A stretch of DNA of 64,000 nt from Gammaproteobacteria bacterium (GTDB taxonomy: Bacteria; Pseudomonadota; Gammaproteobacteria; Arenicellales; CAJQKF01): positions 498 through 64,497 of the forward strand of contig JAUIEZ010000008.1 of the NCBI GenBank assembly GCA_030429665.1, written 5' to 3'. Under the pieces are notes generated by a model. It was not told where the DNA came from. It was given only the letters and a program-made list of their open reading frames with translations, and made no database searches. Position numbers and translations under genes: made by a program. Of the stretch, positions 6,518 to 46,912 are shown piece after piece. Every line of letters starts with the position of its first letter. The stretch's first letter is position 1.

Positions 6518-6640
6518 TTTCGCCGACGCACGGGGTTGCCACGGTCACGAACCGAGGGCGGGGGCGGTAGCGAAACGGTCGGTCGCGCCGGGCGCCGATC
6601 GGTTACACTTTCCGATCAAGCCCGTTCCGGATCGATTCGC

Positions 6641-15576: not shown

Positions 15577-15747
15577 AACTCGTCGCCTCGTACTCGGTAG
15601 CGCGGGCGCTCGTGCCCGTCCCGGCGTGCGAAACGGCGGATGGAGTAGGCGAGTCGTCCGCGTCGGCGTACGCCGACGCGCGGACCGACGGGTCGGGTTG
15701 TGGCAACGACGACGTGCGTGCGTCGTCTTTCAAGCGGAGGGCTTTCG

Positions 15748-16566
15748 ATGTCGGAATGGCAGCTTTCGAACAGTATGAATTTCGGGGGAGCGACGATTCG
15801 CTTCGATCAGCGCGGCAGTGGTTCGCCCGTGGTTCTCGTTCATGGCACGCCATGGTCGTCGTTCAACCTGCGCCACCTGGTGCAAGATCTGTCGCGCGAC
15901 CACGCCGTCTACTACTTCGACCTGCTCGGTTACGGTCAGTCCGACAAGCCGGACGCGGACGTTTCGCTGGGCGTTCAGAACGATTTGCTCGATGCGCTGC
16001 TCTCGCACTGGGAACTCGATGACCCGGTCGTCATCGGTCACGACTTCGGTGGCGCCACGGCGCTGCGCACCCGGCTGTTGAACCAGCGAGCGTTCAAACG
16101 GCTCGTTCTCATCGACGCGGTCGCGGTGTCTCCGTGGGGTTCGCCTTTTTTCCGGCACGTGCGGGAGCACGAATCGGCTTTCGCCGGCGTGCCGGACTAC
16201 ATTCACGACGCCGTGGTGCGGGCCTACGTCAAGACCGCGGCCCACCAACGACTGGACGAGGCCGTACTCGACGCCATCGTCGAGCCATGGACGGGCGCCG
16301 AAGGCAAGGCCGGCTTTTACCGACAGATTGCGCAGGCCGACGCCCGCTTCACCGACGAGGTTCAGCCTCGTTACGGCGAGATAGGCGAACCGGTGTTGAT
16401 CGTGTGGGGGCGCGAGGATTCCTGGATCCCGCTGTCGCGAGCCGAGTCGCTGCATGAATCGATGCGCGGATCGAGGCTGGAGGTCATCGACGATGCCGGT
16501 CACCTCGTCATCGAGGAGAAACCGGCGGAGTTGCTCGGCCGAATTCGCGCTTTCCTCGCAAACTGA
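15748..16566 (+). CDS. Alpha/beta hydrolase with Asp nucleophile (haloalkane/haloacetate dehalogenase- or epoxide hydrolase-like)
   Basis: HGTPWSSFNLRHL (HGxP oxyanion motif), nucleophile elbow VIGHDFGG (Asp, not Ser) and C-terminal DAGHLVIEE (catalytic His). Confidence 0.8.
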   Translation: MSEWQLSNSMNFGGATIRFDQRGSGSPVVLVHGTPWSSFNLRHLVQDLSRDHAVYYFDLLGYGQSDKPDADVSLGVQNDLLDALLSHWELDDPVVIGHDFGGATALRTRLLNQRAFKRLVLIDAVAVSPWGSPFFRHVREHESAFAGVPDYIHDAVVRAYVKTAAHQRLDEAVLDAIVEPWTGAEGKAGFYRQIAQADARFTDEVQPRYGEIGEPVLIVWGREDSWIPLSRAESLHESMRGSRLEVIDDAGHLVIEEKPAELLGRIRAFLAN

Positions 16567-16647
16567 ACGGCCGATGCCGCTCCGGCGCCGGGCCGTTGCC
16601 TGCTATCATGAGACGGCTTCCGCAACCCGGCTCCGGAGGTCACGGTC

Positions 16648-17610
16648 ATGCCGATATGCGAACTCGATCCCTGGCGTACCCAATACTTCGAGCACGTACC
16701 CTGTCCGGAAGACGTTCGGGTCCCCACCGAGGACGGTGACGCCTATCGCTGGTATCCGGCGTTCAAGTGGGTATACAACAAACTGTCCATCGCCGAGAGC
16801 CAGGACCTTCACTGCGGTCCCCACGGCATCGACCCGCCGGGGTTCCCGGTGTTTTCCAAGCCCATCTACAACATGCGCGGCATGGGCGCCGGCAGTCGCA
16901 TGTTTCGCACGCAGAAGGAATACAAGTACGGCCAGCGGCCGGGTCACATGTGGATGCAGATGCTCGACGGCGAGCACGTGAGCACCGATATCGCGGTCGT
17001 TGGCGGCCGCCCCGTGTGGTGGCGCCACGCCACCGGCGTTCCACTCGACGGCGGCATGTTCGACTACTGGATCGTTCACGCCGAGCCACGTTCCGCACTC
17101 GAAGCCTACTGCGGAGAATGGGTCGAACGTAATCTCGAGGGTTACACGGGCATGGTCAACGTCGAGACCATCGGCGGTGCCATCATCGAGGGTCACTTGC
17201 GCTTCGCCGACCAGTGGCCGGACCTCTACGGTCCCGGCTGGGTGGAAGCGCTTGTCGGTCTTTACACGGTCGGCCGCTGGGACTTTGCCGACGATGATCG
17301 GCGCACCGGCTACAGCGTGGTGTTGTTCGGGGCCCACAACGTGCGCTACCGTCATCCGCCCGGCGAGCTGGTCCGGGACCTGCTGGGAACGCCGGGTGTG
17401 ACAAGCATACAGATCACGTTTCACGAGGACCGGCCGGCCGCGGCGCACTCGATGCCGCCGGGCGGTTTCAGGCTCGCCATCGTCAACGGGCACGACCTCG
17501 ACGCGCAACGGCGGGTCCGCGAGCAACTGGCGCTGAGCTACTGGTCCACGCAGCACCTGGTTGCGAGACGCGGCCGGCGTCCCGGCGCGCCGAAGGAATC
17601 GGTGGGGTGA
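16648..17610 (+). CDS. Conserved hypothetical protein, probable ATP-grasp fold ligase
   Basis: 320 aa. PVFSKPIYNMRGMGAGSR resembles the ATP-grasp Lys plus Gly-rich loop. GEHVSTDIAVVGG and MVNVETIGGAIIEGHLR resemble the Mg/ATP-binding E-x-N region. The stop overlaps the next start (GTGATG). Confidence 0.6.
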   Translation: MPICELDPWRTQYFEHVPCPEDVRVPTEDGDAYRWYPAFKWVYNKLSIAESQDLHCGPHGIDPPGFPVFSKPIYNMRGMGAGSRMFRTQKEYKYGQRPGHMWMQMLDGEHVSTDIAVVGGRPVWWRHATGVPLDGGMFDYWIVHAEPRSALEAYCGEWVERNLEGYTGMVNVETIGGAIIEGHLRFADQWPDLYGPGWVEALVGLYTVGRWDFADDDRRTGYSVVLFGAHNVRYRHPPGELVRDLLGTPGVTSIQITFHEDRPAAAHSMPPGGFRLAIVNGHDLDAQRRVREQLALSYWSTQHLVARRGRRPGAPKESVG

Positions 17611-19625
17611 TGCTGGATACGATTCGCGAGGTCGAGAACGTCTTCATTCCGATGCCGGACGGCGTCGAACTCGCCGCCCGGTTGTTCATGCCCGCCGATG
17701 CCGAAATGCATCCCGTACCGGCCATCCTCGAGTACATCCCCTATCGCAAGCGTGACCTGATGCGCGCGCGTGACGAACCCATTCACCGCTACTTCGCCGC
17801 CAACGGGTACGTGAGCGTACGCGTCGACGTGCGCGGGACCGGCGATTCCTCCGGGCTCATGGAGGACGAGTACTCGCACCAGGAACTCGACGACGCGCTG
17901 GCCATCATCGAATGGATCAGCGCGCAGCCGTGGTGCGCCGGGCCGGTCGGCATGATGGGCATATCCTGGGGTGGCTTCAACGCGTTGCAGGTCGCGGCGC
18001 TGCGGCCGCCCGCGCTTGGCGCCATCATCACGCTGTGTTCCACCGACGACCGTTATGCCGACGATGCCCATTACATGGGCGGTTGCCTGCTCAACGAGAA
18101 CATGCAATGGGGATCGATCCTCACCATGAACGCCGCCTACCCGCCGGACCCGGAAGTGGTCGGCGCGCGCTGGCGCGACATGTGGCTCGACCGCATCGAC
18201 GCCCTCGAGCCGTTCGCCGCGCGCTGGATAAGCCATCCCTGGCGCACCGAGTATTGGAAGCACGGTTCGGTGTGCGAGAACATCGACGCCATCGAAGTGC
18301 CCGTGTATGCCATCGGCGGCTGGGCGGACGGCTACAGCAACGCCGTGCCGCGCCTGGTGGAGAACCTGCGCGGCCCGCGCAAGGGCCTGGTCGGTCCATG
18401 GGCGCACAACTTTCCCCATGACGCCACGCCGGGACCTTCGATCGGGTTTCTGCAAGAGGCGGTGAGATGGTGGGACCACTGGCTCAAGGACCGTGAGACC
18501 GGCATCATGGACGAGCCGGTCTACCGGGTGTGGATGCAGGAGTGGGTGCAGCCGCAGCCCCAGTACGAGAACTGGCCCGGTCGCTGGGTAAGCGAGGAAG
18601 CGTGGCCGAGCCCGCGAATCGAGCCCATGACCCTGCAGCTCGACGTCGGCTACCTCGGCAACGACGTGACGGTCACGCGAAGTCTTTCGTTCTGTTCGCC
18701 GCAGACCACTGGCCTGCGCGGCGGCGAATGGTGCGGGTTCGGCGTGGGCGGCGAGATGCCGCCGGACCAGCGGACCGACGATGGCGGCTCGCTGGTGTTC
18801 GACAGCGATCCGCTGGAAGCCGAACTCGAGATGCTCGGTGCCCCGCTGCTGGATCTTCAGATCGCCGCCGACTCGCCCGTCGCGCTCATCGCCGCGCGCC
18901 TGTGCGACGTTGCGCCCGATGGTTCCTCGCTGCGCGTGAGCTACGGTCTGCTCAATCTGTGTCACCGCGAATCGCGTGAGTATCCCGAGCCGATGGAGCC
19001 GGGCAAGCCGTACCGCGTACGCGTGAAGCTGAACGACTTCGCGCACGTGTTCGGCGCCGGGCATCGCATTCGCTTGGCGCTGTCGTCGGCCTACTGGCCG
19101 ATCGCGTGGCCGTCGCCCGACTGGGCAACGCTCGAAGTGAGCACCAACGTCAGCACGCTGACCCTGCCGGTGAGACCGCCGCGCGCCGAAGACGACGGCC
19201 TGCGCGACTTCGAGGCGCCCGACGCCGCGCCGGGCACGCCGCATACGAAAATTCGTCGAATGCCCATGCGGCGGACCGTGGAAATCGACCTGACCACCAA
19301 CGAGATGGTCTACACGCTGCGCAGCGACGGCGGCGAGCTGGAAGGCGCCGCACTGGCGCGGATCGAGGACATAGACCTCGAGATTGGCTACACCATCACC
19401 AAGCGCTACCGCATCCTGGAGGACGATCCGCTGTCGGCCCAGACCGAGCTCGTCCAGCACGCGCGGTTTCGACGCGGCGACTGGCTGGTACGGCTCGAGT
19501 GCCGCAGCAGCCTGCGCGGCACCCGGGACGCCTTCCAGTTCGACTGCCACCTGGAGGCATACGAGGGTGACGAGCCGGTGCGCACCCGGGAGTTCATTAG
19601 AAGCATTCCGCGCCGATTGGTCTGA
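17607..19625 (+). CDS. CocE/NonD family hydrolase (S15 X-Pro dipeptidyl-peptidase-like alpha/beta hydrolase)
   Basis: 672 aa. ILEYIPYRK ... GYVSVRVDVRGTGDSSG ... GMMGISWGGF (GxSxG). The long C-terminal beta-sandwich is typical of the CocE/NonD family. Confidence 0.9.
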   Translation: MMLDTIREVENVFIPMPDGVELAARLFMPADAEMHPVPAILEYIPYRKRDLMRARDEPIHRYFAANGYVSVRVDVRGTGDSSGLMEDEYSHQELDDALAIIEWISAQPWCAGPVGMMGISWGGFNALQVAALRPPALGAIITLCSTDDRYADDAHYMGGCLLNENMQWGSILTMNAAYPPDPEVVGARWRDMWLDRIDALEPFAARWISHPWRTEYWKHGSVCENIDAIEVPVYAIGGWADGYSNAVPRLVENLRGPRKGLVGPWAHNFPHDATPGPSIGFLQEAVRWWDHWLKDRETGIMDEPVYRVWMQEWVQPQPQYENWPGRWVSEEAWPSPRIEPMTLQLDVGYLGNDVTVTRSLSFCSPQTTGLRGGEWCGFGVGGEMPPDQRTDDGGSLVFDSDPLEAELEMLGAPLLDLQIAADSPVALIAARLCDVAPDGSSLRVSYGLLNLCHRESREYPEPMEPGKPYRVRVKLNDFAHVFGAGHRIRLALSSAYWPIAWPSPDWATLEVSTNVSTLTLPVRPPRAEDDGLRDFEAPDAAPGTPHTKIRRMPMRRTVEIDLTTNEMVYTLRSDGGELEGAALARIEDIDLEIGYTITKRYRILEDDPLSAQTELVQHARFRRGDWLVRLECRSSLRGTRDAFQFDCHLEAYEGDEPVRTREFIRSIPRRLV

Positions 19626-19629
19626 TGCG

Positions 19630-20637
19630 TCAGGCGATGCCGCAGCGCTTGCATGCGGTATCGACGATGGCCTGCAGCAATTGCGCGTACGTCCGGCCGG
19701 CGAAGCCGGCCATCAACGCCAGCTTGGCATCATATCCCCAGGCCGGGTTGGTGTTGGCTTCCATGAGCTTGATGATGCCGTCGCGGCCGCGGCGAAAATC
19801 GAAGCGTCCGTAATCGCGAAGCCCCAGGCGTTTGAACAACCGGTGCGAGTGGTTGATCAGCTCGGCCGCCTCGTCTTCGGTCACCTCGGCGGGTTTGTAG
19901 CGTATGTCGGTCCAGTAGGGCGAGTCCGGCATTGCCTTCGACTCGTAGGAGAGGATCGGGTTGAGGCCCTCGGGAAGGCCCGAGAAATCCACCTCCAGGA
20001 GCGGTAGTGCCTCGATCTCGTCGCCATTGCCGATCAACCCGACGCCGTACTCGGTGCCCGTCAGGTATTCCTGGAACAAGGCGTCGCGCCCCGGTAGCGC
20101 CGCGATGTACCAATCGAGATAGGCGCGCGCCTCCTCGGGCGAGCGAACCACCGCGTCCTTGGTGATGCCCAGGCTGCCGTCGGCGCGATTGGGCTTGATG
20201 AGTGCGGGGTAGGGGCCTTGCGGCGGCGGCGCCGAGAGCGTTTCGAAGGGTAGGTACATCTGCTCCGGTACGGGGATGCGCATGTCCTCGGCCACCAGGC
20301 GCACGACGGCCTTGTCGTAGACCATGGCCAGCGCGGCGGGCGGCGACCCGGTATAGGGAATGCCGAGCAATTCGAGATAGGCCGGGACATGCGGTTCGAG
20401 AACGATCCGGTTGCGAAAACCGGTGTCGCAGAAGTTCACCACCAGGTCGAAACGGGTCTCGCGCACCATGTCGAGCAGCGGTCCGTGATCGGCCAGCACC
20501 GTGCACTCCACGCCCGGCATCGAAGCGAACGTGTCTTCCATGACGCGGTGCACGCCGAGGTCTGCCTCGTTGTAGCGGCCGCCGACCTTCTCCGGATCCT
20601 CGACGGTATGGTCGCCCGTGATCACCAGTATCTTCAT
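19630..20637 (-). CDS. D-alanine--D-alanine ligase family ATP-grasp protein
   Basis: Start at MKILVITGD (ATG 20637, GAGGGAGG RBS). YTGSPPAALAMVYDKAVVRLVAEDMRIP ... ALIKPNRADGSLGI ... FQEYL.G.EYGVGLIGN ... GRFDFR....G.IKLMEANTNP are Ddl-like motifs. Confidence 0.85.
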   Translation of the reverse strand: MKILVITGDHTVEDPEKVGGRYNEADLGVHRVMEDTFASMPGVECTVLADHGPLLDMVRETRFDLVVNFCDTGFRNRIVLEPHVPAYLELLGIPYTGSPPAALAMVYDKAVVRLVAEDMRIPVPEQMYLPFETLSAPPPQGPYPALIKPNRADGSLGITKDAVVRSPEEARAYLDWYIAALPGRDALFQEYLTGTEYGVGLIGNGDEIEALPLLEVDFSGLPEGLNPILSYESKAMPDSPYWTDIRYKPAEVTEDEAAELINHSHRLFKRLGLRDYGRFDFRRGRDGIIKLMEANTNPAWGYDAKLALMAGFAGRTYAQLLQAIVDTACKRCGIA

Positions 20638-21070
20638 GTCGATCTCGAAACCTCCCTCGTCAACGCCGGTGGTGTGATGTCCATTGTATTGACGGTGCAC
20701 GCCTGTTGCGAACCGCGCATGCGGCGCATGTCCCATCGCGCCGAATGGCGTCGTTTACCGATAATTAACGATTCGTGCGAGATTTCGCTTGTCCCGCGTA
20801 TGCGTCCGCAATCACGGCGGTTTCCGCCGTTGATTGGGTTTTTCCGGCCAGGTTGTTACCGATGCGGACCGCCGAAAGCCGGTCGCGACGGTCAAAACTT
20901 CATTGACCAAATGGCGATTGCCACTTATCGTTTCGTCTCCCTTGCCGAGAGGCGATTTTGTCCCTTCGCGACTCGCCGGCCTTTTTGCGAGCGCCGGACC
21001 GTTCAAGCCATTCGGAGATTGGTCGTCGGTGATCGGTCGGTCCGGGGAAAAATTCTCGACGGGCACGAAC

Positions 21071-22180
21071 TTGGTATCGATCTTCAAGCAATTATTCGGC
21101 GTTGTCGTCATCGCCGGCATGGTCTATGGCGGCCACGTGGCGTGGGAGCGCTATACGCTTGCGCGCGCAGCCGCCACACCGGCGTCGACGCAATCCTCGG
21201 CGCCCGAGGGCACGCCGGTGGAGTTGGCGCTTGCCGTCACCGCCCCCCGGCAAACGCGCATCGAGGCGGTCGGCTCCACGCTGGCGCGGCGCTCCGTCGA
21301 GATCAAGCCGCTGACCAGCGGGCGCATCGAGGCGATTCATTTCGAGACCGGCAGGCCGGTCGAGTCCGGCAGCGTGCTGGTCTCGCTGGACGACGACATA
21401 GAGCGCGCCAACGTCGCCGAAGCCGAGGCCGCATTGAACGAGGCCAGGCTGGCACTCGATCGGGCCAACATGCTGCGCCAGTCGAGCACCGTGTCGCAGG
21501 CGCAACTCGAAACGTTGATCTCGCAACATGCCATCGCCCGCGCTGCGCTCGACCGGGCACGGCGGCGGCTCGCCGACCGCGAGGTTCGCGCTCCCTTCGC
21601 CGGCATTACCGGCCTGGCGCGCGTCGACCCGGGCGCCATCGTCGACGACGACACCATTATCACGACGCTAGACGATCGTCGCGAGATCGACGTCGAGTTC
21701 GCCTTGCCCGAGACCTTGTACGGCCGCGTCGCCGCCGGCGTACCGGTGGTCGCGACGGCGGCCGCTTTTCCCGAGCGGCGATTCGACGGCGAAATCCTGT
21801 CCGTGGACAGTCGTGTCGACCCGACCGGCCGGTCCTTCAAGGTGCGGGCGCGAATACCCAACGAGGATCGGCTTCTGCCGGCCGGCATGTTCGTGCACCT
21901 GACCGTGGTGCTGGAGGAACGCCTGGCGCTCGTCGTGCCCGAGGAAGCGGTGGTTGCCGAGGGAGAATCGGTCTACGTCTGGGTCGCCGACGACGAGAAC
22001 CGCGCCGCGCGACGCGAAGTGTCGTTGGGACAGCGCGAAGCCGGATCGGTCGAGGTGGTCGAGGGCCTGGAAGCTGGTGAGCGCGTGGTGGTGCGCGGTG
22101 TACAGCGGCTGCGCGACGGCGCGCCGCTGCGCGTGCTCGGCGAGAGAGACGCGGGCGCCGGGAACGGCAAAAGCACGTGA
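21071..22180 (+). CDS. RND efflux periplasmic adaptor (MFP)
   Basis: TM anchor LFGVVVIAGMVYGG, then lipoyl / coiled-coil / beta-barrel pattern (LVSLDDDIERANVAEAEAAL ... VRAPFAGITG ... GMFVHL). The ORF is open from 20834, but 20834-21070 is AT-richer and non-coding-like, so TTG 21071 is preferred. The start is uncertain. Confidence 0.85.
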   Translation: MVSIFKQLFGVVVIAGMVYGGHVAWERYTLARAAATPASTQSSAPEGTPVELALAVTAPRQTRIEAVGSTLARRSVEIKPLTSGRIEAIHFETGRPVESGSVLVSLDDDIERANVAEAEAALNEARLALDRANMLRQSSTVSQAQLETLISQHAIARAALDRARRRLADREVRAPFAGITGLARVDPGAIVDDDTIITTLDDRREIDVEFALPETLYGRVAAGVPVVATAAAFPERRFDGEILSVDSRVDPTGRSFKVRARIPNEDRLLPAGMFVHLTVVLEERLALVVPEEAVVAEGESVYVWVADDENRAARREVSLGQREAGSVEVVEGLEAGERVVVRGVQRLRDGAPLRVLGERDAGAGNGKST

Positions 22181-25100
22181 CGCTGTCGGAGTTATCCATA
22201 CGGCGGCCGGTATTCGCGGCCGTGGTCAGCCTGCTGATCATCGTATTCGGCATCTCGGCGCTGCTGCAGCTACCCGTGCGCGAACTGCCCGACGTGGATG
22301 CGCCGGTCGTGACCGTGACCACGACATACACCGGCGCGGCGCCGGAAATCATCGACACCGATATCACCGAGATCATCGAGGGCGCCATCGCCGGGGTGAG
22401 CGGCGTCAAGACGATCAGTTCGGAAAGCCGCCGTGACCGCAGCCGGGTGATTGTGGAGTTCGACATCGGGCGTAACATCGACGAGGCCGCCAACGACGTG
22501 CGCGACGCGGTGGGTCGGGTGCGCGGCGAACTGCCCGACGACGTGGACGAGCCGAGGGTGGTCAAGAGCGACAGCGATGCCGATCCGGTAATGCGCCTGG
22601 CGGTGACGTCGGACCGCATGACGCCGGCCGAGGTAACCGACTACGCCGAACGCTTCATCATCGAACGGCTCTCGACGCTGGACGGCGTATCTTCCATCGA
22701 CACCTGGGGTGAGCGGCGACAGGCAATCCGCATCTGGCTGGACCGCCGCGCGCTGGCTGCGCGCAACCTGACGGTGGCCGACATCGAGAACGCCCTGCGG
22801 CGCAACAACGTGGAGCTGCCGAGCGGCGAGATCGAATCCTCGACGAGGTTGTTCACGGTGCGCGTCGACAGCCGTCTGAGTGAAGTCGAACAGTTCCGCC
22901 GCATCGTCGTCGACCGGGTAGCCGGCTACCCGGTGCGCCTGTCGGACGTCGCCCAGGTCGAACTGGGCGTGGAGGCCGACGAGACCTTCGTTCGAAACAA
23001 CGGCCGCACCGCCCTGGGGCTGGCGGTGGCGCGCCAGTCGCAGGCCAACACCATGGCGATCTCGCGGGCGGTGCGTGCAGAGATCGAGCGGCTCAAACCC
23101 ACCCTGCCGGAGGGCATGGAAATCCTGGTCGGCTCGGACGACGCGTTGTTCATCGCCTCGTCGATTCGCGAGGTGGGCATCGCGCTCGGTATCTCGCTGA
23201 CCCTCGTGCTGCTGGTGATCCTGCTGTTCCTGATGTCGTTTCGCGCCACGCTCATTCCCGCCATCGCCATACCGGTCTCGGTGATCGGCTGTTTCGCGCT
23301 GATTTACGCGTTGGGGTTTTCCATCAACGTGCTGACGCTGCTTGCGTTGGTGCTCGCGATCGGACTGGTGGTGGACGACGCCATCATCGTCATCGAGAAC
23401 ATCCAGCGACGCATCGATGCCGGCGAAACGCCGTTGGTGGCGAGCGTGATGGGTTCTCGCCAGGTGACCTTCGCGGTGATCGCCACCTCCATCACGCTGA
23501 TCTCCGTGTTCGTGCCGATCTCATTCCTGCAAGGCGCGGCGGGCCGGTTGTTCACCGAATTCGGTTTCGTCATGGCCAGCTCGGTGGCGATTTCCATGTT
23601 CGTCGCGCTTTCCGCCTGTCCGGCGTTGTCGTCGAAGGTGCTCAAGCCGGCCTTCGGCAACCACCATGGCGGCGGGCGCCGCGGGCCCATGGCGCGCCTT
23701 GCGCGCGCCTACTCGAAGCTGCTTTCCGGCGCGTTGTCGGTGCCGCTGGTCGTCATCACCGTGGCGCTCGTTTACTCGGCGGGCGCCTTCATCACCTTCC
23801 AGCAACTGCCGCGCGAACTGACGCCGCGCGAGGATCGCGGCGTGTTGTTCGTTCCGCTGACCACGCCGCAAGGCTCCAACGTGGAGTTTACCGACGAGCA
23901 GACCCGGGAGGTGGAGAACATTCTCGCGCCGCTGGTGGACAGCGGCGAGGTCACCAGCCTGTATTCGATCGTGGGAAGCTGGGGCAGGCCGTATCGCGCC
24001 TTCGTCGTTCTGCGCCTGGCCCACTGGTCGGAGCGCGAACGAAGCGCCAGCGACATCGTGACCGCCATCGCCCCGGACGTCACCGGTCTGGCCGGCGCGC
24101 GAGGTTACCCCGCGGCCCCCGCCGGCCTCGGCCTGCGCGGTTCGTCCACGCCGCTGCGCGTGGTCGTGAGCGGGCCGGATTTCGAGAGCGTCAAGGAATG
24201 GTCGCAGACGCTGCTGGCGCGCGCCCGCGACAACCCGAATCTGCGCAATGCCCAGGTCGATTTCGAGCAGAACCAGCCGCAGATCAACCTGTCGGTGAAT
24301 CGCGCCCGGGCAGACGACCTGGGAATACCGGTGCAAACCGTGGCCGCCACGTTGCAGACCATGCTGGCGTCGCGGCAGATCACCGATTTTATCGACCGCG
24401 GTCGCGAGTACCCGGTAATCGTCCAGGCCCACCAGCAGGACCGCCGCACGCCGAGCGATATCTCCAACATTTTCGTGCGCGCCGGTGACGGTCGCACGCT
24501 GGTGCCCATGTCCGCGCTGGTGGAGGCGAGGGAGAACGCCGCGTCGGCTTCGCTGAAGCGTTACAACCGCCTGCCGTCAATTACCATCGAAGCGGCGCTG
24601 GCGGAGGACTACGACCTGGGCGCCGCCATCGAGTACATGTTGCAGGCGGCCGCCGAGTCCTTGCCCGACGAGGCCTTCATCGGCTTTTCCGGCCAGTCGC
24701 AACAATACCTGGAAACATCGAGCGGCGTCGCCGTGACGTTCGCGCTCGCGCTGTTGATCGTGTTCCTGGTGCTCGCCGCGCAGTTCGAGAGCTGGGTGCA
24801 TCCGCTGATCATCATGTTGTCGGTGCCGCTCGCCATCGCCGGCGCCATCTATACGTTGTCGCTGACCGGTCAGTCCCTCAACCTGTACAGCCAGATCGGA
24901 ATCATTCTGCTAATCGGCCTGATGGCCAAGAACGGCATTCTCATCGTGGAGTTCGCCAACCAGCTGCGCGACGAGGGCTACAACGTCAGGGACGCGGTCA
25001 TCGAGTCGGCGACGTTGCGCCTGCGCCCGATTCTCATGACGGTTATCGCGACCATACTCGGAGCAGTGCCATTGGCCATTGCCACGGGCGCGGGTGCGGA

Positions 25101-25308
25101 GGCGCGCACCACTATCGGTTTCGTGATCATTGGCGGCCTGAGCGTCGCCACCGTGCTGACCCTGTTCCTCACGCCGGTGCTTTACAGCGTGCTGGCCGGT
25201 CTGTCGCGACCGCGGGCGGCCATCGAGCAGCAACTCGAGCGCGAACTCGTTGCCGCGGGGCCGTCGTCGTCTCCGGCCGTCGCCGAAACCGCGAAAGAGC
25301 CGTCCTGA
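22177..25308 (+). CDS. RND multidrug efflux permease (AcrB/AcrD/AcrF family)
   Basis: 1043 aa. LSELSIRRPVFAAVVSLLIIVFG N-terminus and VLAIGLVVDDAIIVIENI, with 12-TM organisation. GTG start overlaps the adaptor stop (GTGA). Confidence 0.95.
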   Translation: MTLSELSIRRPVFAAVVSLLIIVFGISALLQLPVRELPDVDAPVVTVTTTYTGAAPEIIDTDITEIIEGAIAGVSGVKTISSESRRDRSRVIVEFDIGRNIDEAANDVRDAVGRVRGELPDDVDEPRVVKSDSDADPVMRLAVTSDRMTPAEVTDYAERFIIERLSTLDGVSSIDTWGERRQAIRIWLDRRALAARNLTVADIENALRRNNVELPSGEIESSTRLFTVRVDSRLSEVEQFRRIVVDRVAGYPVRLSDVAQVELGVEADETFVRNNGRTALGLAVARQSQANTMAISRAVRAEIERLKPTLPEGMEILVGSDDALFIASSIREVGIALGISLTLVLLVILLFLMSFRATLIPAIAIPVSVIGCFALIYALGFSINVLTLLALVLAIGLVVDDAIIVIENIQRRIDAGETPLVASVMGSRQVTFAVIATSITLISVFVPISFLQGAAGRLFTEFGFVMASSVAISMFVALSACPALSSKVLKPAFGNHHGGGRRGPMARLARAYSKLLSGALSVPLVVITVALVYSAGAFITFQQLPRELTPREDRGVLFVPLTTPQGSNVEFTDEQTREVENILAPLVDSGEVTSLYSIVGSWGRPYRAFVVLRLAHWSERERSASDIVTAIAPDVTGLAGARGYPAAPAGLGLRGSSTPLRVVVSGPDFESVKEWSQTLLARARDNPNLRNAQVDFEQNQPQINLSVNRARADDLGIPVQTVAATLQTMLASRQITDFIDRGREYPVIVQAHQQDRRTPSDISNIFVRAGDGRTLVPMSALVEARENAASASLKRYNRLPSITIEAALAEDYDLGAAIEYMLQAAAESLPDEAFIGFSGQSQQYLETSSGVAVTFALALLIVFLVLAAQFESWVHPLIIMLSVPLAIAGAIYTLSLTGQSLNLYSQIGIILLIGLMAKNGILIVEFANQLRDEGYNVRDAVIESATLRLRPILMTVIATILGAVPLAIATGAGAEARTTIGFVIIGGLSVATVLTLFLTPVLYSVLAGLSRPRAAIEQQLERELVAAGPSSSPAVAETAKEPS

Positions 25309-25362
25309 CGGCGGCGCGCGAATCGCGCGACGACCGTACGATATCGAGATGCGGCTGCGTCG

Positions 25363-28017
25363 CTAGAAAGTCCCGTGCATCTTGCCCTGGCTTGCGTGAA
25401 GGCGTTCTCTCACCGCCTGCGGGTGTAGAAGCATGACAAACGGATCGATGGCGATACCGGCCGTCAGCCTGTTCCTGAGCGTCACCGAATCGATGCAGTG
25501 AATTCGCAGTTCCCCGCCGAGCGACTTTACCCGCAGGGCGTTTCCCAGCAGCGAAAGCGTTTTCTCGATATTCTGTCGCAACAGTGCGCCTTCGCCGTAG
25601 TAGTCGAGGTCGCGGATGAATACCTTTGCCACGGTCGGCCTCCTGCCTTGGCCGAAATCGGCCATCCCCTCGATATCGACGTAAACGTGATAGGGAACGC
25701 CGGCGACGTACTCGGCCCGGTGGGTCTGCGTCATTGCCGTGGTGCCGAGCGCCACGATCAGCGCATTGTTCTTCTCGAACCACTCGGCTGGCGAGTCCTC
25801 GCCGAAGGGAAGTTCGCCGCGCAGGGACAACAGTTCTCGCGCCCGGGGTCCGACGGCTGTCCAGCTGTAGATCGGGTTGGGCGTGCGGATGGAATCAGCG
25901 AATTCCTGCCTCACCCAGTCGCCAAGCAGCCCGGACTCGGACCGTGACGACTCGATGTCGAAGCATCGGCTTTCGCAGAATGATGTATAGGTAAATGTCG
26001 GGAACACAAGCGTGATTCCCTTTGACGCGAACTTCGCGATGGTCGTCAACAGCTGTGAGCGAATCTCGTCTTTGGAAAGGCTCCGCGCGACGTCGGTCAA
26101 GGAAGCATGAACAACCATGACCGACGACTCGCCGCGAAACCTGTCGGCCCAGGAAAACGCGTCCGCCAGGTTGCATTGAAGCGGTGCCGGGGCGTTGCCG
26201 ATGTTCGGTTTCGTACGCGAAATCTTTCGCGCGAGTTCGCGGATCGTCCCCGACCGCAACACCAAATCCGATTCGTCGAAACCGACACGATATCCCGCCT
26301 GCTCCAGTTCGCTCGACAGTCTGAAGATGTCGAGGCTGTCGAGCCCCAGCTGATCGATGCGGTTGTCAGCGTTTACCAGGACACCGAAGGACGTTTGCAA
26401 TATGCCGACGACGGCCGTTTGCTCGTCCGTTGTTTCCGATGACCCGCGCGCGGCGTCGCGAAAGTCCCGCAGGTCCGGAGGTTGAAGCCGCGAATAGTCG
26501 ATCTTGCCGTTTTTCGTCGTCGGAAAGCTGTCGAGCGTCCGCAGGATTTGCGGCCGCATGTAGTCGGGCAATTGGCCCAACCATTGGTGTAATGCGCCAA
26601 CATCGGCTGCAAGGGGAGTCACGTAGCCCACGAGGATGGGTTTTTCCTCGCCGTTCGGCAACGTTCTATTCTGTTCGAACACCGCGGCCGCCTCGACTCC
26701 GTTATGCCGTTCAAGGAAGTGCTCGATCTCGGCCGGTTCCACCCGATACCCCTTGATCTTGAGTTGGCGGTCGTTTCGACCGAAGATCTCGATGCTTCCA
26801 TCGTCGGCGACACGTCCGATATCGCCCGTTCGATACACTCGTTCACCCACGGTCTCGGCGAACAGGAACCTGGCGCGCTCCTCGTCCGATGCACCGACGT
26901 ATCCTCTCGCGAGCTGGACGCCCGAGATACACATCTCGCCTTTCTCGCCGGGCGCCACCGCTTTAAGCTCCTGGTCGAGGATATGAATCCGGCAGTTTTT
27001 AGCGGGGTACCCGATCGACATTTCCATCGGGATGTCCGATGTCGGGGTCTTGCCGGACGTTACCGCTACCGTGCATTCCGTCGGACCGTACTGATTGAAC
27101 AGGTCCGCGCGCGGAAACACCCGGTGAAACCGCCGGCGGGTGGGGTCCGGCAGGTGTTCGCCGTTGGAGACGACGCATCGGAGTCGATCCAGTCCCGCGC
27201 CTTCGTCAGTCTCGCACGCCTGAAGAAACGCGTTCAGGAACTGCGGCACGAGCTGGGCGATCGTAACGCCATTCGCCTGCATGAATTCGCGAACGAGCGC
27301 CGGGTGGTTGCGCATTGCCGCGTCGGGTATCGCTGATCGGCCGGCGTATGCCAGGGGCAGCCAGATCTCCCACAGCGATATGTCGAAGGTAGTCGGCGAT
27401 CGCTGCAGAACGGCGTCGTCGGCGGTCAGGTCGAGCGTGTCGTTTTCCCAATCCAGCAGGTTTGCCATCGCGCCGTGAGATACTTCGACGCCCTTCGGCA
27501 TGCCGGTGGTACCGCTGGTGAACAGGATGTAGGCGATATCGTCATTGTTCGCCCGAACGGCTTCGGGGGCCGCGTCGCCGGTGCGGGCCGACCCGCTGTC
27601 GTCATCGCTGGACAGGTCGACCGGATCGAGGGTGAGCGCAACGATCGGCAACGGATGTTCGCGCTCGAAATCGCGGCTACACACGATAACGGTGGCTTCC
27701 ATTGCGTGGATCACGTGGTCGAGGCGTTCGGTGGATATGTCGGGATCGATCGGCGCGAACGCGGCGCCAAGCTTCATGGCGCCATAGCAGGCAACGACGA
27801 ACTCGATTCCCGGTGGTAGCGCGACGATGACCCTGGATTGGTACCCGGCCCCGGTCCGTGACATGCTCGCCGCGAACGCGTTGGCGAGTTTCTCGACGTG
27901 GGCGCGGCTGAATCGTCGTTCGTTGCAAACGATCGCGATCTCGTCGGGGTTCTCGCGCGCGCGCGATTCGATTCGGGCGGGGAGGAGGTCGATTACGCCG
28001 TTTGCATCGGCCGCCAT
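25363..28017 (-). CDS. NRPS-like tridomain protein: adenylation (A) + peptidyl carrier (T/PCP) + C-terminal AAC(3)/Antibiotic_NAT-like acyltransferase domain
   Basis: Start at ATG 28017, with AGGAG 7 nt upstream. A-domain cores: YILFTSGTTGMPKGV (A3), NQYGPTE (A5), YRTGD (A7), GRNDRQLKIKGYRVEPAEIE (A8), PTTKNGKIDY (A10). PCP motif LGLDSLDIF (Ser codon 26335-26337). The last ~260 aa carry AAC(3)-like blocks VMVVHASL, LVFPTFTY, NPIYSWTAVGPRA, FGEDSPAEW and LGTTAMTQTHRAEY (His codon 25720-25722). Confidence 0.85.
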   Translation of the reverse strand: MAADANGVIDLLPARIESRARENPDEIAIVCNERRFSRAHVEKLANAFAASMSRTGAGYQSRVIVALPPGIEFVVACYGAMKLGAAFAPIDPDISTERLDHVIHAMEATVIVCSRDFEREHPLPIVALTLDPVDLSSDDDSGSARTGDAAPEAVRANNDDIAYILFTSGTTGMPKGVEVSHGAMANLLDWENDTLDLTADDAVLQRSPTTFDISLWEIWLPLAYAGRSAIPDAAMRNHPALVREFMQANGVTIAQLVPQFLNAFLQACETDEGAGLDRLRCVVSNGEHLPDPTRRRFHRVFPRADLFNQYGPTECTVAVTSGKTPTSDIPMEMSIGYPAKNCRIHILDQELKAVAPGEKGEMCISGVQLARGYVGASDEERARFLFAETVGERVYRTGDIGRVADDGSIEIFGRNDRQLKIKGYRVEPAEIEHFLERHNGVEAAAVFEQNRTLPNGEEKPILVGYVTPLAADVGALHQWLGQLPDYMRPQILRTLDSFPTTKNGKIDYSRLQPPDLRDFRDAARGSSETTDEQTAVVGILQTSFGVLVNADNRIDQLGLDSLDIFRLSSELEQAGYRVGFDESDLVLRSGTIRELARKISRTKPNIGNAPAPLQCNLADAFSWADRFRGESSVMVVHASLTDVARSLSKDEIRSQLLTTIAKFASKGITLVFPTFTYTSFCESRCFDIESSRSESGLLGDWVRQEFADSIRTPNPIYSWTAVGPRARELLSLRGELPFGEDSPAEWFEKNNALIVALGTTAMTQTHRAEYVAGVPYHVYVDIEGMADFGQGRRPTVAKVFIRDLDYYGEGALLRQNIEKTLSLLGNALRVKSLGGELRIHCIDSVTLRNRLTAGIAIDPFVMLLHPQAVRERLHASQGKMHGTF

Positions 28018-28321
28018 AGTCACACTCCTGTAAGCGCGCAGGCGTCGGTATGACAAGCTCGCCACCGCACGGTTCCCGGAATCCCGGACCGCGATCCCGG
28101 ACATTGGATGTATCCCCTGTTACAGGGCGAAACACCTGCCTTTCGGACCGCACGCACTGTGCCGGGAACCGGGTCGGGATGTCGGCACGTCAACACGTTT
28201 TCCTCCACCCTCGGCTGTCCGGGGCGGTCCGGTCGAGGCCCAGCCAGGGCGACGGCAAGGAAAGCTGCCAAGTCAGGGTAAGTATGGCAAATGTTGCAGT
28301 CAATTCCTGACCAAAAAATTA

Positions 28322-28350
28322 TTGTTGGTTACATGGACAATTTGTACAAT
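28322..28350 (+). promoter_or_regulatory. Putative sigma70 promoter of the TetR-lig transcription unit
   Basis: TTGTTG (28322-28327), 17 nt spacer, TACAAT (28345-28350). This is the most AT-rich patch of the window, 48 nt upstream of the TetR ATG. Confidence 0.55.
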
Positions 28351-28363
28351 CGTACAAATTGTC
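28336..28363. promoter_or_regulatory. Perfect 12-4-12 inverted repeat, putative TetR operator
   Basis: GACAATTTGTAC-aatc-GTACAAATTGTC read directly. The left arm contains the predicted -10 hexamer, and the repeat lies 35 nt upstream of the TetR start. Confidence 0.7.
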
Positions 28364-28397
28364 GAACGCCAGTTTTCAGTACGATTTGGTCTGCGCC

Positions 28398-29048
28398 ATG
28401 ACCAGTAGCCGTCGCGAACGCATCCTCGAGGCCGGCGAGACCTTGATGTCCCAACGCGGTTTTCATGCCGTGAGCATGCGCGAGATCGCCCGGGAGGCAG
28501 GTGCGAACCTGGGAAGCGTGACTTACCATTTCGGCACCAAGGAAAACCTGCTGGCGGAGATTTACGCGCGACACACGGTCCCGATGAATCGGCGGCGAAT
28601 GGAATTGTTGGTCGAGGCGGAGCGTATCTCCGATCGGCGCGAGCGTCTGTCGGCAATCATCCGCGCGTTCGTGGTGCCGGCATTTTCCGCCAGTGCCGAC
28701 AGCGCTGGCGGCGGGGCGCGCTTCACGCGCCTTCGCGCCATTCTCTCCATGGAAGGAAACGAAACGGCCGGCCGTATCATCGCCGACGCGTTCGACGAGA
28801 CGACCCACGCCTTCGTGGAGGCGCTGGGTCGATGCCTGCCCGGCGCGGATGAGGCATTCATCACGTGGCGCCTTCATTTCCTGCTGGGCGCGTTGTACTA
28901 CACGCTGGTCGGCGGAGAGAGAATCAATCGACTCACGGCCGGTCGCTGCGATGGCAATGACCAGCAGGCGGCCATCGAGCAACTGGTCAGCGCCACGGCG
29001 GACTCGCTTGCCTGCGACGGCGCGGCGGGCAACCCGCGCGCCGCGTAA
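28398..29048 (+). CDS. TetR/AcrR family transcriptional regulator
   Basis: Start at MTSSRRERILEAG (ATG 28398). The HTH is GFHAVSMREIAREAGANLGSVTYHFGTKENLL. Confidence 0.9.
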   Translation: MTSSRRERILEAGETLMSQRGFHAVSMREIAREAGANLGSVTYHFGTKENLLAEIYARHTVPMNRRRMELLVEAERISDRRERLSAIIRAFVVPAFSASADSAGGGARFTRLRAILSMEGNETAGRIIADAFDETTHAFVEALGRCLPGADEAFITWRLHFLLGALYYTLVGGERINRLTAGRCDGNDQQAAIEQLVSATADSLACDGAAGNPRAA

Positions 29049-29092
29049 CCGGTGCCGCCTGAACCCATTTCAATCGACGGGAGATATCACCA

Positions 29093-30037
29093 ATGAAGAT
29101 CTGCATGGTCGGCGAAGGCGCATTCGCCAACAAGCATCTGGACGCGCTTGCCAACATCGAGGACGTGGAGGTGGCCGCCATCGTCGGCGGCGTCGCCGAC
29201 GCCACCGAGAAAGTGGCGCAGGAGCGCGGCATTGGTTTCTGGACAACCGACCTCGAGGAGGGGCTTGCCCGCGACGGCGTCGAGGCCGCCATCCTCACCA
29301 CGCCCACACCGATTCACGCCAGCCAGGCGCAGCAGGTCATGCGCCTGGGCAAGCACGTGCTGGTCGAGATACCCATGGCCGACAGCCTTGCCGACGCCGA
29401 AGCGGTGGTCGCCGCGCAGAAGGAAACCGGCGTGGTGGCCATGGTGGGTCACACGCGCCGCTTCAATCCGTCGCACCAGTGGGTGAACAAGCGCCTGCGC
29501 GCGGGCGAACTGCACATACAGCAGATGGACGTGCAAACCTATTTCTTCCGCCGCAAGAATCTCAACGCCCTCGGACAGCCCCGAAGCTGGACCGATCACC
29601 TGTTGTGGCATCACGCCTGTCACACGGTCGACCTGTTTCAGTATCAGGCCGGCGAGGTCGTCTCGGAAGTGTTCGCGTTGCAGGGACCGAAGCATCCCGA
29701 GCTCGGCATCGCGATGGACATGAGCATCGGCATGAAGACGCCCTCGGGAGCGATCTGCACGCTGTCGCTGTCGTTCAACAACGACGGACCGCTGGGTACG
29801 TTCTTTCGATACATCTGCGACAACGGCACCTACATCGCCCGCTACGACGACCTCGTCGACGGCCGCGAGAATCCCATCGACGTGTCGGCGGTGGACGTGT
29901 CGATGAACGGTATCGAGCTGTGCGACCGCGAGTTCGTGGCCGCCATCCGCGAGGGTCGCGAGCCCAACGCCAGCGTGGCCCAGTGCCTGCCGGCCATGCA
30001 GACGCTCGATCGCATCGAAAAGTGCCTCGGGGAATAA
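29093..30037 (+). CDS. ligC: 4-carboxy-2-hydroxymuconate-6-semialdehyde dehydrogenase (Gfo/Idh/MocA family)
   Basis: 314 aa. VGHTRRFNPSHQW ... QQMDVQTYFFRRKN ... RSWTDHLLWHHACHTVDLF ... LSLSFNNDGPLGTFFRYICDNGTY match what I recall of LigC. Context with ligI/K/J/U supports the call. Confidence 0.85.
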   Translation: MKICMVGEGAFANKHLDALANIEDVEVAAIVGGVADATEKVAQERGIGFWTTDLEEGLARDGVEAAILTTPTPIHASQAQQVMRLGKHVLVEIPMADSLADAEAVVAAQKETGVVAMVGHTRRFNPSHQWVNKRLRAGELHIQQMDVQTYFFRRKNLNALGQPRSWTDHLLWHHACHTVDLFQYQAGEVVSEVFALQGPKHPELGIAMDMSIGMKTPSGAICTLSLSFNNDGPLGTFFRYICDNGTYIARYDDLVDGRENPIDVSAVDVSMNGIELCDREFVAAIREGREPNASVAQCLPAMQTLDRIEKCLGE

Positions 30038-30041
30038 TTTC

Positions 30042-30917
30042 ATGGTTACGCCGGACTATCTCGCCTTTCACCCCAATCCGAAGAAGCCGGATCGCGCGCT
30101 GCCGCCGAACGCCTGCGACAGCCATTGCCACGTGTTCGGGCCGGCCGCCAGGTTTCCATTCGCTTCTAGCAGTACGTACGAGCCGGTGGACGCGCCCAGG
30201 GAGAAGCTGTTCGAGCTGCATCGTCACCTGGGCGTGAGCCGGTCGGTTATCGTCCAGGCAAGTTGTCACGGTACGGACAACGCGGCCATGGTCGATGCGC
30301 TCGAGGCGGGCGGCGATAGCTACCGCGGTATCGCCGTGGTAAGCGACGACGTCGATGCCGGCGAACTGGCGCGAATGCACGAGGCGGGGGTGCGCGGCGT
30401 TCGATTCAATTTCGTCAAGCGCCTTGGCGGCGGCAAGCCGCTGGACGTGTACCGCCGGATTCTCGAGAAGATCCGGCCTTTCGGGTGGCACGTGGTGGTG
30501 TACTTCGACGCCGAGGACATCGACTCCCTGGCGCCGTTCCTGCGCGAGATTCCGACCGAGGTGGTAATCGACCACATGGGCCGAGTACCGGTTGAGGAGG
30601 GCACCGCGGGCCATGCTTTCGAGCTGCTGCACGAGCTGCTGGTTGCCGACGACCGTTACTGGGTGAAAATCAGTTGTCCCGAGCGGTTGTCGAAACAAGG
30701 TCCCCCGTATTCCGACGTCGATCCCGTCGCGCGGGCGTTGCTCTCGGCGATACCGGACCGGGTATTGTGGGGTACCGACTGGCCGCATCCCAACATGAAG
30801 TCGCACATGCCGGACGACGGCGAGCTGGTCGACCGTATCATGACCATCTGCGACACTGACGAACTTCGCCGCAAGGTGCTGGTGGACAACCCGGCGCGGC
30901 TCTACGGATTTAATTAA
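30042..30917 (+). CDS. ligI: 2-pyrone-4,6-dicarboxylate lactonase (amidohydrolase_2)
   Basis: 291 aa. [43 protein letters not shown] and [10 protein letters not shown] closely mirror Sphingobium LigI. Confidence 0.9.
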
Positions 30918-30934
30918 ACCCAGGAGGTTTTTCG

Positions 30935-31630: not shown

Positions 31631-31653
31631 AGGAAACGCAAAGGGCAACTGCC

Positions 31654-32682: not shown

Positions 32683-32686
32683 CCCA

Positions 32687-45341: not shown

Positions 45342-45391
45342 CGCGACGTTGTGACGAGATTCACTGCACTTTAGTTTGAGGGCGTATCGCC

Positions 45392-46837: not shown

Positions 46838-46912
46838 GGCGCGATAATGCAAGGCCGCGGACATGACGCCCGCGGCCGTTGCATCGACTTCGGACACGGT
46901 CCGCCGAATCCC

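Follow-up and report, generated by a model that had tools for sequence, protein, structure and literature searches.

We analysed a 64,000-nucleotide stretch of a gammaproteobacterial genome (contig JAUIEZ010000008.1 of GenBank assembly GCA_030429665.1, positions 498 to 64,497 of the forward strand), which is called the window below and is numbered from its first letter. On its minus strand, at 25363..28017, lies a gene whose product joins an adenylation (A) domain and a carrier, or thiolation (T), domain of the type used by nonribosomal peptide synthetases (NRPSs) to a C-terminal domain with the predicted fold of the aminoglycoside 3-N-acetyltransferases (AAC(3)), the Antibiotic_NAT (NAT) superfamily. 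We refer to the product as the A-T-NAT protein. A preliminary description of this DNA, made from the letters alone, had placed a fusion of an A-T didomain with an AAC(3)-like domain at these coordinates, and the open reading frame (ORF) indeed proved to be intact over 884 amino acids (aa), with Pfam and NCBIfam matches to its domains.

The A-T-NAT gene and its domains

The stop codon of the gene occupies 25363-25365 on the minus strand, and two ATG codons, at 28104 (913 aa) and 28017 (884 aa), are candidate starts. The 884-aa reading is preferred over the 913-aa ORF because an AGGAG sequence precedes the ATG at 28017 and because alignments to homologs begin there, at about 27972-28032. The frame is full length, without frameshift, and all catalytic and core motifs are intact. 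The gene and the features of its product are as follows.

25363..28017, minus strand: complete coding sequence of the A-T-NAT protein, 884 aa plus stop (ORF list, ribosome-binding site and start, homolog alignments, domain scans)
28025..28029, minus strand: Shine-Dalgarno sequence AGGAG, 7 nt upstream of the ATG at 28017 (read directly from the DNA letters)
26899..27969, minus strand: adenylation domain core, residues 17-373 (PF00501, 272.5 bits; TIGR01733, 360.9 bits against a cut-off of 317.4)
26503..26730, minus strand: adenylation C-terminal subdomain AMP-binding_C, residues 430-505, with the A10 Lys (PF13193, 27.9 bits)
26227..26406, minus strand: carrier (thiolation, or peptidyl carrier protein [PCP]) domain, residues 538-597 (PF00550, 21.9 bits against a cut-off of 20.8)
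26335-26337, minus strand: phosphopantetheine-attachment residue Ser561 (QLGLDSLDI, translated from 26326-26352)
25366..26187, minus strand: C-terminal AAC(3)/Antibiotic_NAT-fold domain, residues 611-884, proposed aminoacyl-transfer (release) domain (PF02522, AlphaFold, Foldseek, profile against the PDB)
25711..25731, minus strand: catalytic motif TQTHRAE, with Thr763, His766 and Glu769 (translation, family conservation, PDB alignment)

The adenylation domain passes the cut-off of TIGR01733, the NCBIfam model for amino-acid adenylation domains. Cores A3, A5, A7, A8 and A10, the FD(235)xS motif and the carrier motif LGLDS(561)L can be read in the translation, so that the complete adenylation domain and the LGLDSL carrier domain described earlier both stand. 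Ser561 is invariant across a five-protein alignment, and a carrier motif lies between the A and NAT domains in 27 of the 28 A-T-NAT proteins checked.

Specificity codes were extracted by aligning all A-T-NAT proteins to a fragment of GrsA-PheA. The GrsA control returned its canonical code, DAWTIAAICK, with the numbering right at all ten positions. The window A domain has the code DIWQVNQVAK, in which Asp235 and the equivalent of Lys517 are retained and the pocket is polar (Gln278, Asn301, Gln322). The code read by hand in the preliminary description, D-I-W-Q-V-S-Q-V-A-K, was right at nine positions and wrong at position 301, which is Asn and not Ser. To our knowledge, DIWQVNQVAK matches no known specificity code. 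Because Asp235 and Lys517 are kept, an alpha-amino acid is the expected substrate. The codes of the family vary by clade (Gln-like, Ser-like and the window type) while the catalytic triad of the NAT domain is constant, as would be expected if different amino acids were fed to one transfer chemistry.

The C-terminal domain has the catalytic apparatus of AAC(3) enzymes

Residues 636-781 matched PF02522 (Antibiotic_NAT) at 56 bits against a cut-off of 25 (E 5.5e-15; Pfam), whereas no Pfam match to a condensation (C), thioesterase (TE) or reductase (R) domain was obtained in the protein at E up to 1. Since the PF02522 match spanned only profile positions 2-165, residues 611-883 were modelled with AlphaFold using a 32-sequence alignment. 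The model of these 273 aa had a pLDDT of 94.3 and a pTM of 0.91. The best 50 matches listed by Foldseek against the PDB were all Antibiotic_NAT structures, with TM scores of 0.63-0.71 over about 265 columns, and comprised AAC-IIIb, FrbF, AAC(3)-IVa, meta-AAC0038, BA2930, AAC-VIa, AAC(3)-IIb and AAC(3)-Xa. The model therefore indicates that the Antibiotic_NAT fold holds for the whole C-terminal domain.

A search of the PDB with the family profile matched AAC(3)-IVa (6mn3; E 3.5e-19), FrbF (1.9e-16) and YokD (2nyg; 1.6e-15). At the invariant His column of the family, wild-type AAC(3)-IVa has His (TTLHLAEL), whereas the mutant H154A chains 6mn4 and 6mn5 have Ala (TTLALAEL), which marks His766 of the window protein as the catalytic His. 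In AAC-VIa, Thr186 binds the acetyl carbonyl, the Glu192-His189 pair deprotonates the substrate amine, and mutation of Thr186, His189 or Glu192 lowers activity to 3-5% in each case (Kumar et al. 2018, PMC5884680). The spacing of T763-Q-T-H766-R-A-E769 equals that of these three residues (PMC5884680), and the His and Glu of the triad are 100% conserved in 107 full-length subfamily domains.

Much of what the preliminary description had said of the C terminus was thereby confirmed. Its assignment to AAC(3) agrees with the PF02522 score and with the lack of any C, TE or R family match, and the AlphaFold model and structure search that it had suggested gave the fold of AAC(3) and FrbF. The likeness that it had noted to YokD was recovered by the family profile, and its catalytic His-x-x-Glu corresponds to His766 and Glu769, which together with Thr763 are sequence-equivalent to the AAC(3) residues in a domain of the same fold. 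Membership of an AAC(3) resistance family was rejected on scores of 32.1 bits against a cut-off of 270 (NF033082), 25.0 against 420 (NF033081), 20.2 against 480 (NF033080) and 21.3 against 560 (NF033180). The C-terminal domain thus shares the AAC(3) fold and catalytic apparatus yet is no member of an AAC(3) resistance family and no aminoglycoside-resistance enzyme.

Relatives of the A-T-NAT protein

A full-length homology search covering 5.8 billion proteins found the same architecture only in P0002, P0003 and P0004 (37-38% identity) and in P0007, an A-T-NAT protein with an extra N-terminal formyltransferase domain. An exhaustive hidden Markov model search of 1.84 billion representative proteins with a profile of the C-terminal domain matched 2,982 proteins at E <= 1e-3, 118 of them at E <= 1e-30. 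We then took a census of architectures among the best 150 of the 2,982 (50%-identity clusters, E up to about 4e-25) by local phmmer, with examples confirmed by Pfam and NCBIfam. NAT-FkbH fusions (FkbH matching TIGR01686; 274 bits, cut-off 147) account for about 78 of them, some ending in a carrier domain; about 25 more are A(-T)-NAT proteins, 3-4 join the NAT to an acyl carrier protein (ACP), and about 43 stand alone, so that about 70% of these 150 clusters are fused to carrier-loading modules. In a few A-T-NAT members a further domain is present, either a formyltransferase at the N terminus or a condensation-like or PhzF domain at the C terminus (PhzF in P0210). The search for the same domain order proposed in the preliminary description thus revealed an architecture that is rare but extends to at least 25 clusters at 50% identity, with recurring gene neighbours.

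The 150 subfamily members scored 105-443 bits against the profile, compared with 73 bits for the best AAC(3) chain in the PDB, the latter with a related profile. In a neighbor-joining tree, the NAT domains of A-T-NAT proteins cluster together, apart from those of NAT-FkbH and stand-alone proteins, and the window domain is sister to that of P0123. Judged by sequence, the window NAT is closer to the fused, A-T- and FkbH-linked NATs than to the AAC(3) chains of the PDB.

Two peptide patterns derived from the clade matched only 2 of 185,579 species-representative genomes. Pattern scans of genomes and metagenomes (2 loci each, in NAT-FkbH context) found no close relatives of the window protein, and no relatives of the window organism were found at 90% identity, housekeeping proteins included. 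The preliminary description knew of no characterised example of this architecture; likewise, no publication that combines an Antibiotic_NAT domain with an adenylation domain, an NRPS or a carrier protein turned up in a full-text literature search, subscription journals being outside its coverage and a characterised example there being possible. In genome annotations, the relatives are named 'AMP-binding protein', 'HAD-IIIC family phosphatase' or 'AAC(3) family N-acetyltransferase … response to antibiotic'.

Association of the NAT subfamily with carriers and amino sugars

NATs of this subfamily recur fused to, or beside, carriers and the enzymes that load them, namely, A-T didomains, FkbH domains and an ACP with an aminoacyl-tRNA synthetase (aaRS)-like ligase. 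FkbH domains load glyceryl groups onto ACPs. Since a glyceryl group tethered in this way has no amine, an FkbH-fused NAT cannot be acetylating the tethered group, and the economical reading is that it transfers the glyceryl. On Bacillus cereus plasmid p.1 (L021 5676-13599), a NAT, an ACP, a class-II aaRS-like ligase (labelled 'aminoacyl-tRNA ligase-related protein', with a class II core), a long aminotransferase and an ATP-grasp ligase lie in one string, which looks like a split-gene analogue of the A-T-NAT enzyme. Because most of the nearest relatives are fused to carrier-loading enzymes, the donor is probably a carrier-tethered group. The enzyme's own acyl- or aminoacyl-S-PCP, which would be the donor according to the preliminary description, thus gains strong comparative support from the fusions to A-T, FkbH and ACP, and none of the outcomes that the preliminary description had named as refuting was observed.

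Several members of the subfamily lie among genes for nonulosonic acids, in pathways where a sugar amine has to be N-acylated. On Tritonibacter mobilis p4, a stand-alone NAT is part of a pseudaminic-acid pathway, in the order pseB-pseC-hyp-DUF4910-NAT-FlmD-ATP-grasp-oxidoreductase-pseI…pseF. The A-T-NAT protein P0173 has the code DAWQFGLIDK, which we take to be a Gln code, and its neighbours are NeuB, a CMP-sugar synthetase, a PseB-like dehydratase, a Maf-like protein, DUF4910 and a methyltransferase. The locus of P0007 is a large sugar/nonulosonate-type cluster with DUF4910. It also has Amidohydro_2 and RraA-like genes (L004 851-3845), families that occur at 30042-31630 of the window as well, inside the lig-type operon beside the A-T-NAT gene, probably by coincidence.

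NAT-FkbH genes flanked by DUF4910 and SDR genes were found beside a flagellin gene (L014) and, in Prochlorococcus (L009), beside GT4 and Wzz genes. In L009 (4246-9550), L014 (8593-13845) and L022 (5598-7714), a DUF4910/DUF2172/HTH_47 gene directly precedes the NAT-FkbH or stand-alone NAT gene, an SDR gene often follows, and the loci lie in flagellin, polysaccharide or pseudaminic-acid clusters. The DUF4910-NAT-FkbH layout suggests a three-step route to N-glyceroyl nonulosonic acids, in which an amine is freed, glyceryl is loaded on a carrier and the group is transferred. In Campylobacter jejuni, Cj1295 is probably a DUF4910 protein, and Cj1296/7 is probably AAC(3)-like. According to Hitchen et al. 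(2010, PMC3068675), the aminopeptidase-like Cj1295 is required for 5-N-(2,3-di-O-methylglyceroyl) pseudaminic acid and was proposed to free the amine; cj1302, in the same flagellin glycosylation locus, is an FkbH-domain gene (PMC7099621). Together with the flanks of the NAT-FkbH genes, these data suggest that a carrier-borne acyl group is transferred to a sugar amine. The amino-sugar acceptors put forward in the preliminary description would therefore suit some members, whereas the context of the window clade points elsewhere.

Gene neighbourhoods of the window clade and of the window gene

The loci of P0002, P0003, P0004 and P0123 carry genes for Ddl-like, MurF-like (180 bits against a cut-off of 289), alpha/beta-hydrolase and VanX/DdpX-like M15 proteins, and a PhzF gene usually overlaps the stop codon of the A-T-NAT gene. 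This cassette lies at L001 8350-20253, L005 1329-10368, L007 43-10235 and L015 2093-11780, with the gene for the MurF-like ligase overlapping that for the alpha/beta-hydrolase; the L001 copy is flanked by integrases and an insertion sequence (IS) element. The combination of A-T-NAT, PhzF, MurF-like, Ddl-like and M15 genes resembles a van-type module for remodelling cell-wall precursors. Rhizobial plasmids and the P0125 locus add ProB or ProA, agmatinase, M19 dipeptidases and transporters. The P0176 locus and a Streptomyces plasmid carry genes for an ATP-grasp ligase (LAL-type in P0176), PhzF, an MFS transporter and an S66 LD-carboxypeptidase, and the Streptomyces locus also has a Ddl gene. On the plasmid of Streptomyces sp. 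NBC_00015 (L023 4185-8685), an IS5 transposase apparently interrupts the A-T-NAT gene: the adenylation ORF stops just short of A10, and the downstream 401-aa 'AAC(3) family N-acetyltransferase' starts with a carrier domain, GSLGLDSLGRLE. At the P0187 locus, a Ddl gene lies amid amino-acid-tailoring genes.

Counted over loci, 10 of 13 A-T-NAT loci have an ATP-grasp ligase gene no more than 10 kb away, and PhzF is adjacent in 7 of 10 window-clade loci and fused in P0210; exporters (MFS or EamA) recur. The context of the window clade points to small peptide-like or cell-wall-precursor-like chemistry and not to amino sugars. That the window carries the cassette of its relatives was rejected, as the partner genes were absent by tblastn and blastp. 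Two neighbours of the A-T-NAT gene could bear on its pathway.

19630..20736, minus strand: Ddl-like ATP-grasp ligase (non-dcw), possible pathway partner (PF07478, 57 bits; NCBIfam Ddl models, 88 bits, below cut-off)
20834..25308, plus strand: efflux pair of a membrane fusion protein (MFP; 20834-22180; HlyD_D23) and an RND protein (22177-25308; ACR_tran, 986 bits), possible exporter

The ATP-grasp gene lies 4.6 kb from the A-T-NAT gene and is divergent from the MFP-RND pair, which in turn is convergent with the A-T-NAT gene and ends 55 bp from its stop codon. Orthology of the window ATP-grasp protein with the partner Ddl of the relatives was ruled out (25% identity, E 0.04), and since it is no ortholog, a functional link to the A-T-NAT protein is plausible by theme only.

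The lowest G+C content of the window coincides with the A-T-NAT gene (0.616 at 26001-28000, against about 0.65-0.66 around it), and its G+C content at third codon positions (GC3), 0.76, is below that of its neighbours, the adjacent RND gene having 0.86. These values are consistent with horizontal acquisition of the gene. Several relatives lie on plasmids or on DNA flanked by integrases, IS elements or Tn7. Scans for promoters and terminators over 25200-28450 found nothing exceeding shuffle expectation.

Proposed mechanism and alternatives

The comparisons above establish which domains the protein has and what fold the C-terminal one adopts, that the residues of the catalytic and carrier sites are intact, and that the family as a whole is linked to carriers. 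We consider it probable that the A-T-NAT protein is a stand-alone, single-module NRPS-like enzyme in which the enzyme's own aminoacyl-S-carrier is the donor, an external amine is the acceptor and the NAT domain off-loads the product by aminolysis. The adenylation domain would activate an alpha-amino acid, which the phosphopantetheine arm on Ser561 would then carry as a thioester. The AAC(3)-fold domain would accept this arm in place of the pantetheine of acetyl-CoA; Thr763 would hold the thioester carbonyl while Glu769-His766 deprotonated the incoming external amine, and attack of the amine on the thioester would release an N-aminoacyl amide. The NAT domain would thus serve as an off-loading (aminolysis) domain that replaces a condensation, thioesterase or reductase domain. 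By analogy with its relatives in the clade, the enzyme probably yields a small metabolite of peptide-like character; the Ddl-like ATP-grasp ligase nearby may extend it further, and the neighbouring RND pump may export it. In this scheme, the donor, the way in which the transfer runs and the presence of an external acceptor amine are inferred.

Several points weigh against this interpretation. The carrier domain is a marginal match that barely clears its Pfam cut-off (21.9 against 20.8 bits), and the case for every member of the A-T-NAT family is computational and not biochemical. Searches of the window by tblastn and blastp for the PhzF, MurF-like, M15 and Ddl partners returned only a generic alpha/beta-hydrolase match, so that nothing nearby suggests an acceptor. 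The scan of the window genes revealed no phosphopantetheinyl transferase (PPTase); these enzymes often have their genes at other sites, and a weak match to 4PPT_N, a PPTase family, lies downstream in the P0007 locus. P0152 and some other members carry a C-terminal condensation-like domain that could perform the transfer in those proteins. Finally, the clade with the Gln code, together with the N-acetyl-glutamine decorations of glycans reported in PMC3068675, is also compatible with a NAT that acetylates a tethered amino acid.

This last point leads to an alternative that we regard as unlikely, in which the NAT is a tailoring domain that, as classical AAC(3) and FrbF enzymes do, takes acetyl-CoA as donor and acetylates the alpha-amine of the amino acid tethered to the PCP, and the resulting N-acetyl-aminoacyl group is released or transferred by another enzyme. 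Acetyl-CoA is the donor for all characterised Antibiotic_NAT enzymes (PMC5884680; PDB entry titles), a tethered amino acid does have an amine, and the A-T-NAT clade with the Gln-type code lies in a nonulosonate cluster, N-acetyl-glutamine decorations of pseudaminic acid being known (PMC3068675). However, about 78 of the nearest 150 relatives are fused to FkbH, and the glyceryl tethered there offers no amine to acetylate. The formyl-A-T-NAT proteins already possess a domain that would block the alpha-amine, the Ser-like code of P0152 implies a substrate without a second amine, and no separate release enzyme is encoded beside the window gene.

It is improbable that the NAT releases the tethered amino acid by forming a lactam with an amine of the substrate side chain or by plain hydrolysis of the thioester. 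The Thr/His/Glu apparatus needs only a nucleophile placed at His766, and no gene that would supply an acceptor is evident in the window. Codes for Orn, Lys and Dab usually carry an acidic pocket residue that binds the basic side chain, and DIWQVNQVAK lacks such a residue; hydrolysis would be a futile cycle, and the relatives in glycan clusters imply intermolecular transfer. We find it very improbable that the gene is a decaying remnant, without current function, of the larger cassette with PhzF, Ddl, MurF-like and M15 genes. It is an orphan without its conserved partners, its relatives lie on mobile DNA and its Streptomyces homolog is split by an IS5 element, but it keeps a full-length frame with no frameshift, every catalytic and core motif and a strong ribosome-binding site, and its GC3 of 0.76 shows the codon-position bias typical of a coding gene. 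Least credible of all is a resistance or detoxification enzyme that aminoacylates an amine-bearing antibiotic such as an aminoglycoside alongside the adjacent RND pump, since, against the AAC(3) fold, the convergent MFP-RND pump, the adjoining TetR regulator and the low G+C content that suggests horizontal acquisition, there stand scores of 20-32 bits on resistance models with cut-offs of 270-560, a TetR gene that heads a downstream lig-type catabolic operon, the lack of any relative in a recognisable resistance context and the cost of ATP-dependent aminoacylation as a drug modification.

Off-loading by the NAT domain may be part of a wider pattern, which we propose tentatively and hold at a little short of even confidence. 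The AAC(3)/Antibiotic_NAT fold would include a widespread and so far unrecognised class of carrier-dependent N-acyltransferases that off-load aminoacyl groups (from A-T didomains or aaRS-like ligase/ACP pairs) or glyceryl groups (from FkbH/ACP) onto amines. One branch would provide the unusual N-acyl groups of pseudaminic- and legionaminic-type sugars. The window branch, found with Ddl-like, L-amino-acid-ligase, MurF-like and PhzF proteins, would build or remodel small peptides resembling peptidoglycan stems, and the window protein would be a minimal, self-contained case of a new strategy for release from NRPSs.

Comparison with known systems

The window protein belongs to the PF02522 superfamily and lies outside the AAC(3) resistance families and the canonical NRPS termination modules. 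It shares with AAC(3)-IVa, -IIIb and -VIa the fold of the whole domain (TM 0.63-0.71), the Thr-x-x-His-x-x-Glu motif and the attack of an amine on a pantetheine thioester. It differs from AAC(3) enzymes in that its NAT domain is only about 17-19% identical to theirs and is fused behind an A-T didomain, and in its presumed donor, an aminoacyl-S-carrier and not acetyl-CoA. FrbF (3SMA), of FR-900098 biosynthesis, and YokD (2NYG) are likewise Antibiotic_NAT members apart from the classical resistance enzymes. FrbF is biosynthetic and acts on an amine that is not an aminoglycoside, with acetyl-CoA as donor; unlike the window protein, both FrbF and YokD stand alone, without a link to a carrier.

The logic by which an A-T didomain activates and tethers a substrate and a third domain off-loads it is that of VibH, terminal C_T domains, the A-T-R carboxylic acid reductases and the A-T-TE synthetases, and VibH-type enzymes off-load by aminolysis with a free amine. 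The off-loading domain of the window protein differs completely from C, TE and R domains in fold and catalytic apparatus. In butirosin biosynthesis, BtrH transfers an aminoacyl-type group from an ACP to an amine of an aminoglycoside; BtrH is not known to have the Antibiotic_NAT fold and is a separate protein from its ACP and loading enzymes. The NAT-FkbH proteins, with their DUF4910/DUF2172 flanks, belong to the same NAT subfamily as the window protein, but their loader is FkbH (for glyceryl) and not an A domain (for an amino acid). The Cj1295, Cj1296-7 and cj1302 region of C. jejuni has a glycan-modification context, which is absent from the window. Finally, the amino acid:[carrier protein] ligases, which are aaRS homologs with dedicated carriers, represent an activating-enzyme family different from that of the window A domain; in the B. 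cereus locus, the same three functions are encoded by separate genes.

If off-loading by the NAT domain were confirmed, it would represent a new type of NRPS off-loading domain, compact at about 270 aa, that joins a single activated amino acid with a free amine and would be attractive for engineering biocatalysts that form amide bonds. Part of a family known for resistance would be reassigned to biosynthesis, and present annotations could mislead resistome surveys. The subfamily would supply a testable candidate for the enzyme that places glyceroyl or aminoacyl groups on the amines of pseudaminic and legionaminic acids, an open question in glycobiology, and the mobile cassette of A-T-NAT, PhzF, Ddl, MurF-like and VanX-like genes would merit attention as akin to cell-wall-precursor remodelling systems.

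Other features of the window

Three co-directional genes lie at 15700..19625, identified with Pfam and NCBIfam, for which processing or immunity functions may be suggested by weak inference.

15700-16566, plus strand: alpha/beta-hydrolase
16648-17610, plus strand: 320-aa protein without an assigned family
17607-19625, plus strand: CocE/NonD S15 hydrolase

The remaining genes of the window are catabolic, transport and regulatory genes, and no other NRPS gene was found among those scanned. A perfect palindrome of 12+12 nt, GACAATTTGTAC-aatc-GTACAAATTGTC, lies at 28336-28363 and occurs nowhere else in the window (chance expectation, 0). Part of it coincides with the TTG listed as the start of the TetR gene (28359-29048), and this repressor probably uses it as its operator. 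That TetR is a dedicated regulator of the A-T-NAT gene is unlikely, since about 320 bp separate the palindrome, at the start of TetR, from the start of the A-T-NAT gene and since TetR is the first gene of a lig-type operon. In this region (28359-33769), TetR is followed on the same strand by genes for a GFO_IDH_MocA/OxRdtase_C dehydrogenase, two Amidohydro_2 proteins, an RraA-like aldolase and a PrpF-type tautomerase, a set of the type that degrades protocatechuate by 4,5-cleavage or gallate. At the DNA level, the lig-type genes are about 75-78% identical to genes of Alphaproteobacteria (Croceicoccus, Novosphingobium and an Azospirillum plasmid). Two further regions seem unrelated to the A-T-NAT gene. 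At 43656-48100, an enoyl-CoA hydratase, a weak PaaA/PaaC-like protein and a Fer4/FAD/NAD reductase are encoded in a row, possibly a box-type aromatic-CoA pathway, and at 6536-9925 lies the gene for an 1129-aa adenylate-cyclase/AAA/TPR regulator.

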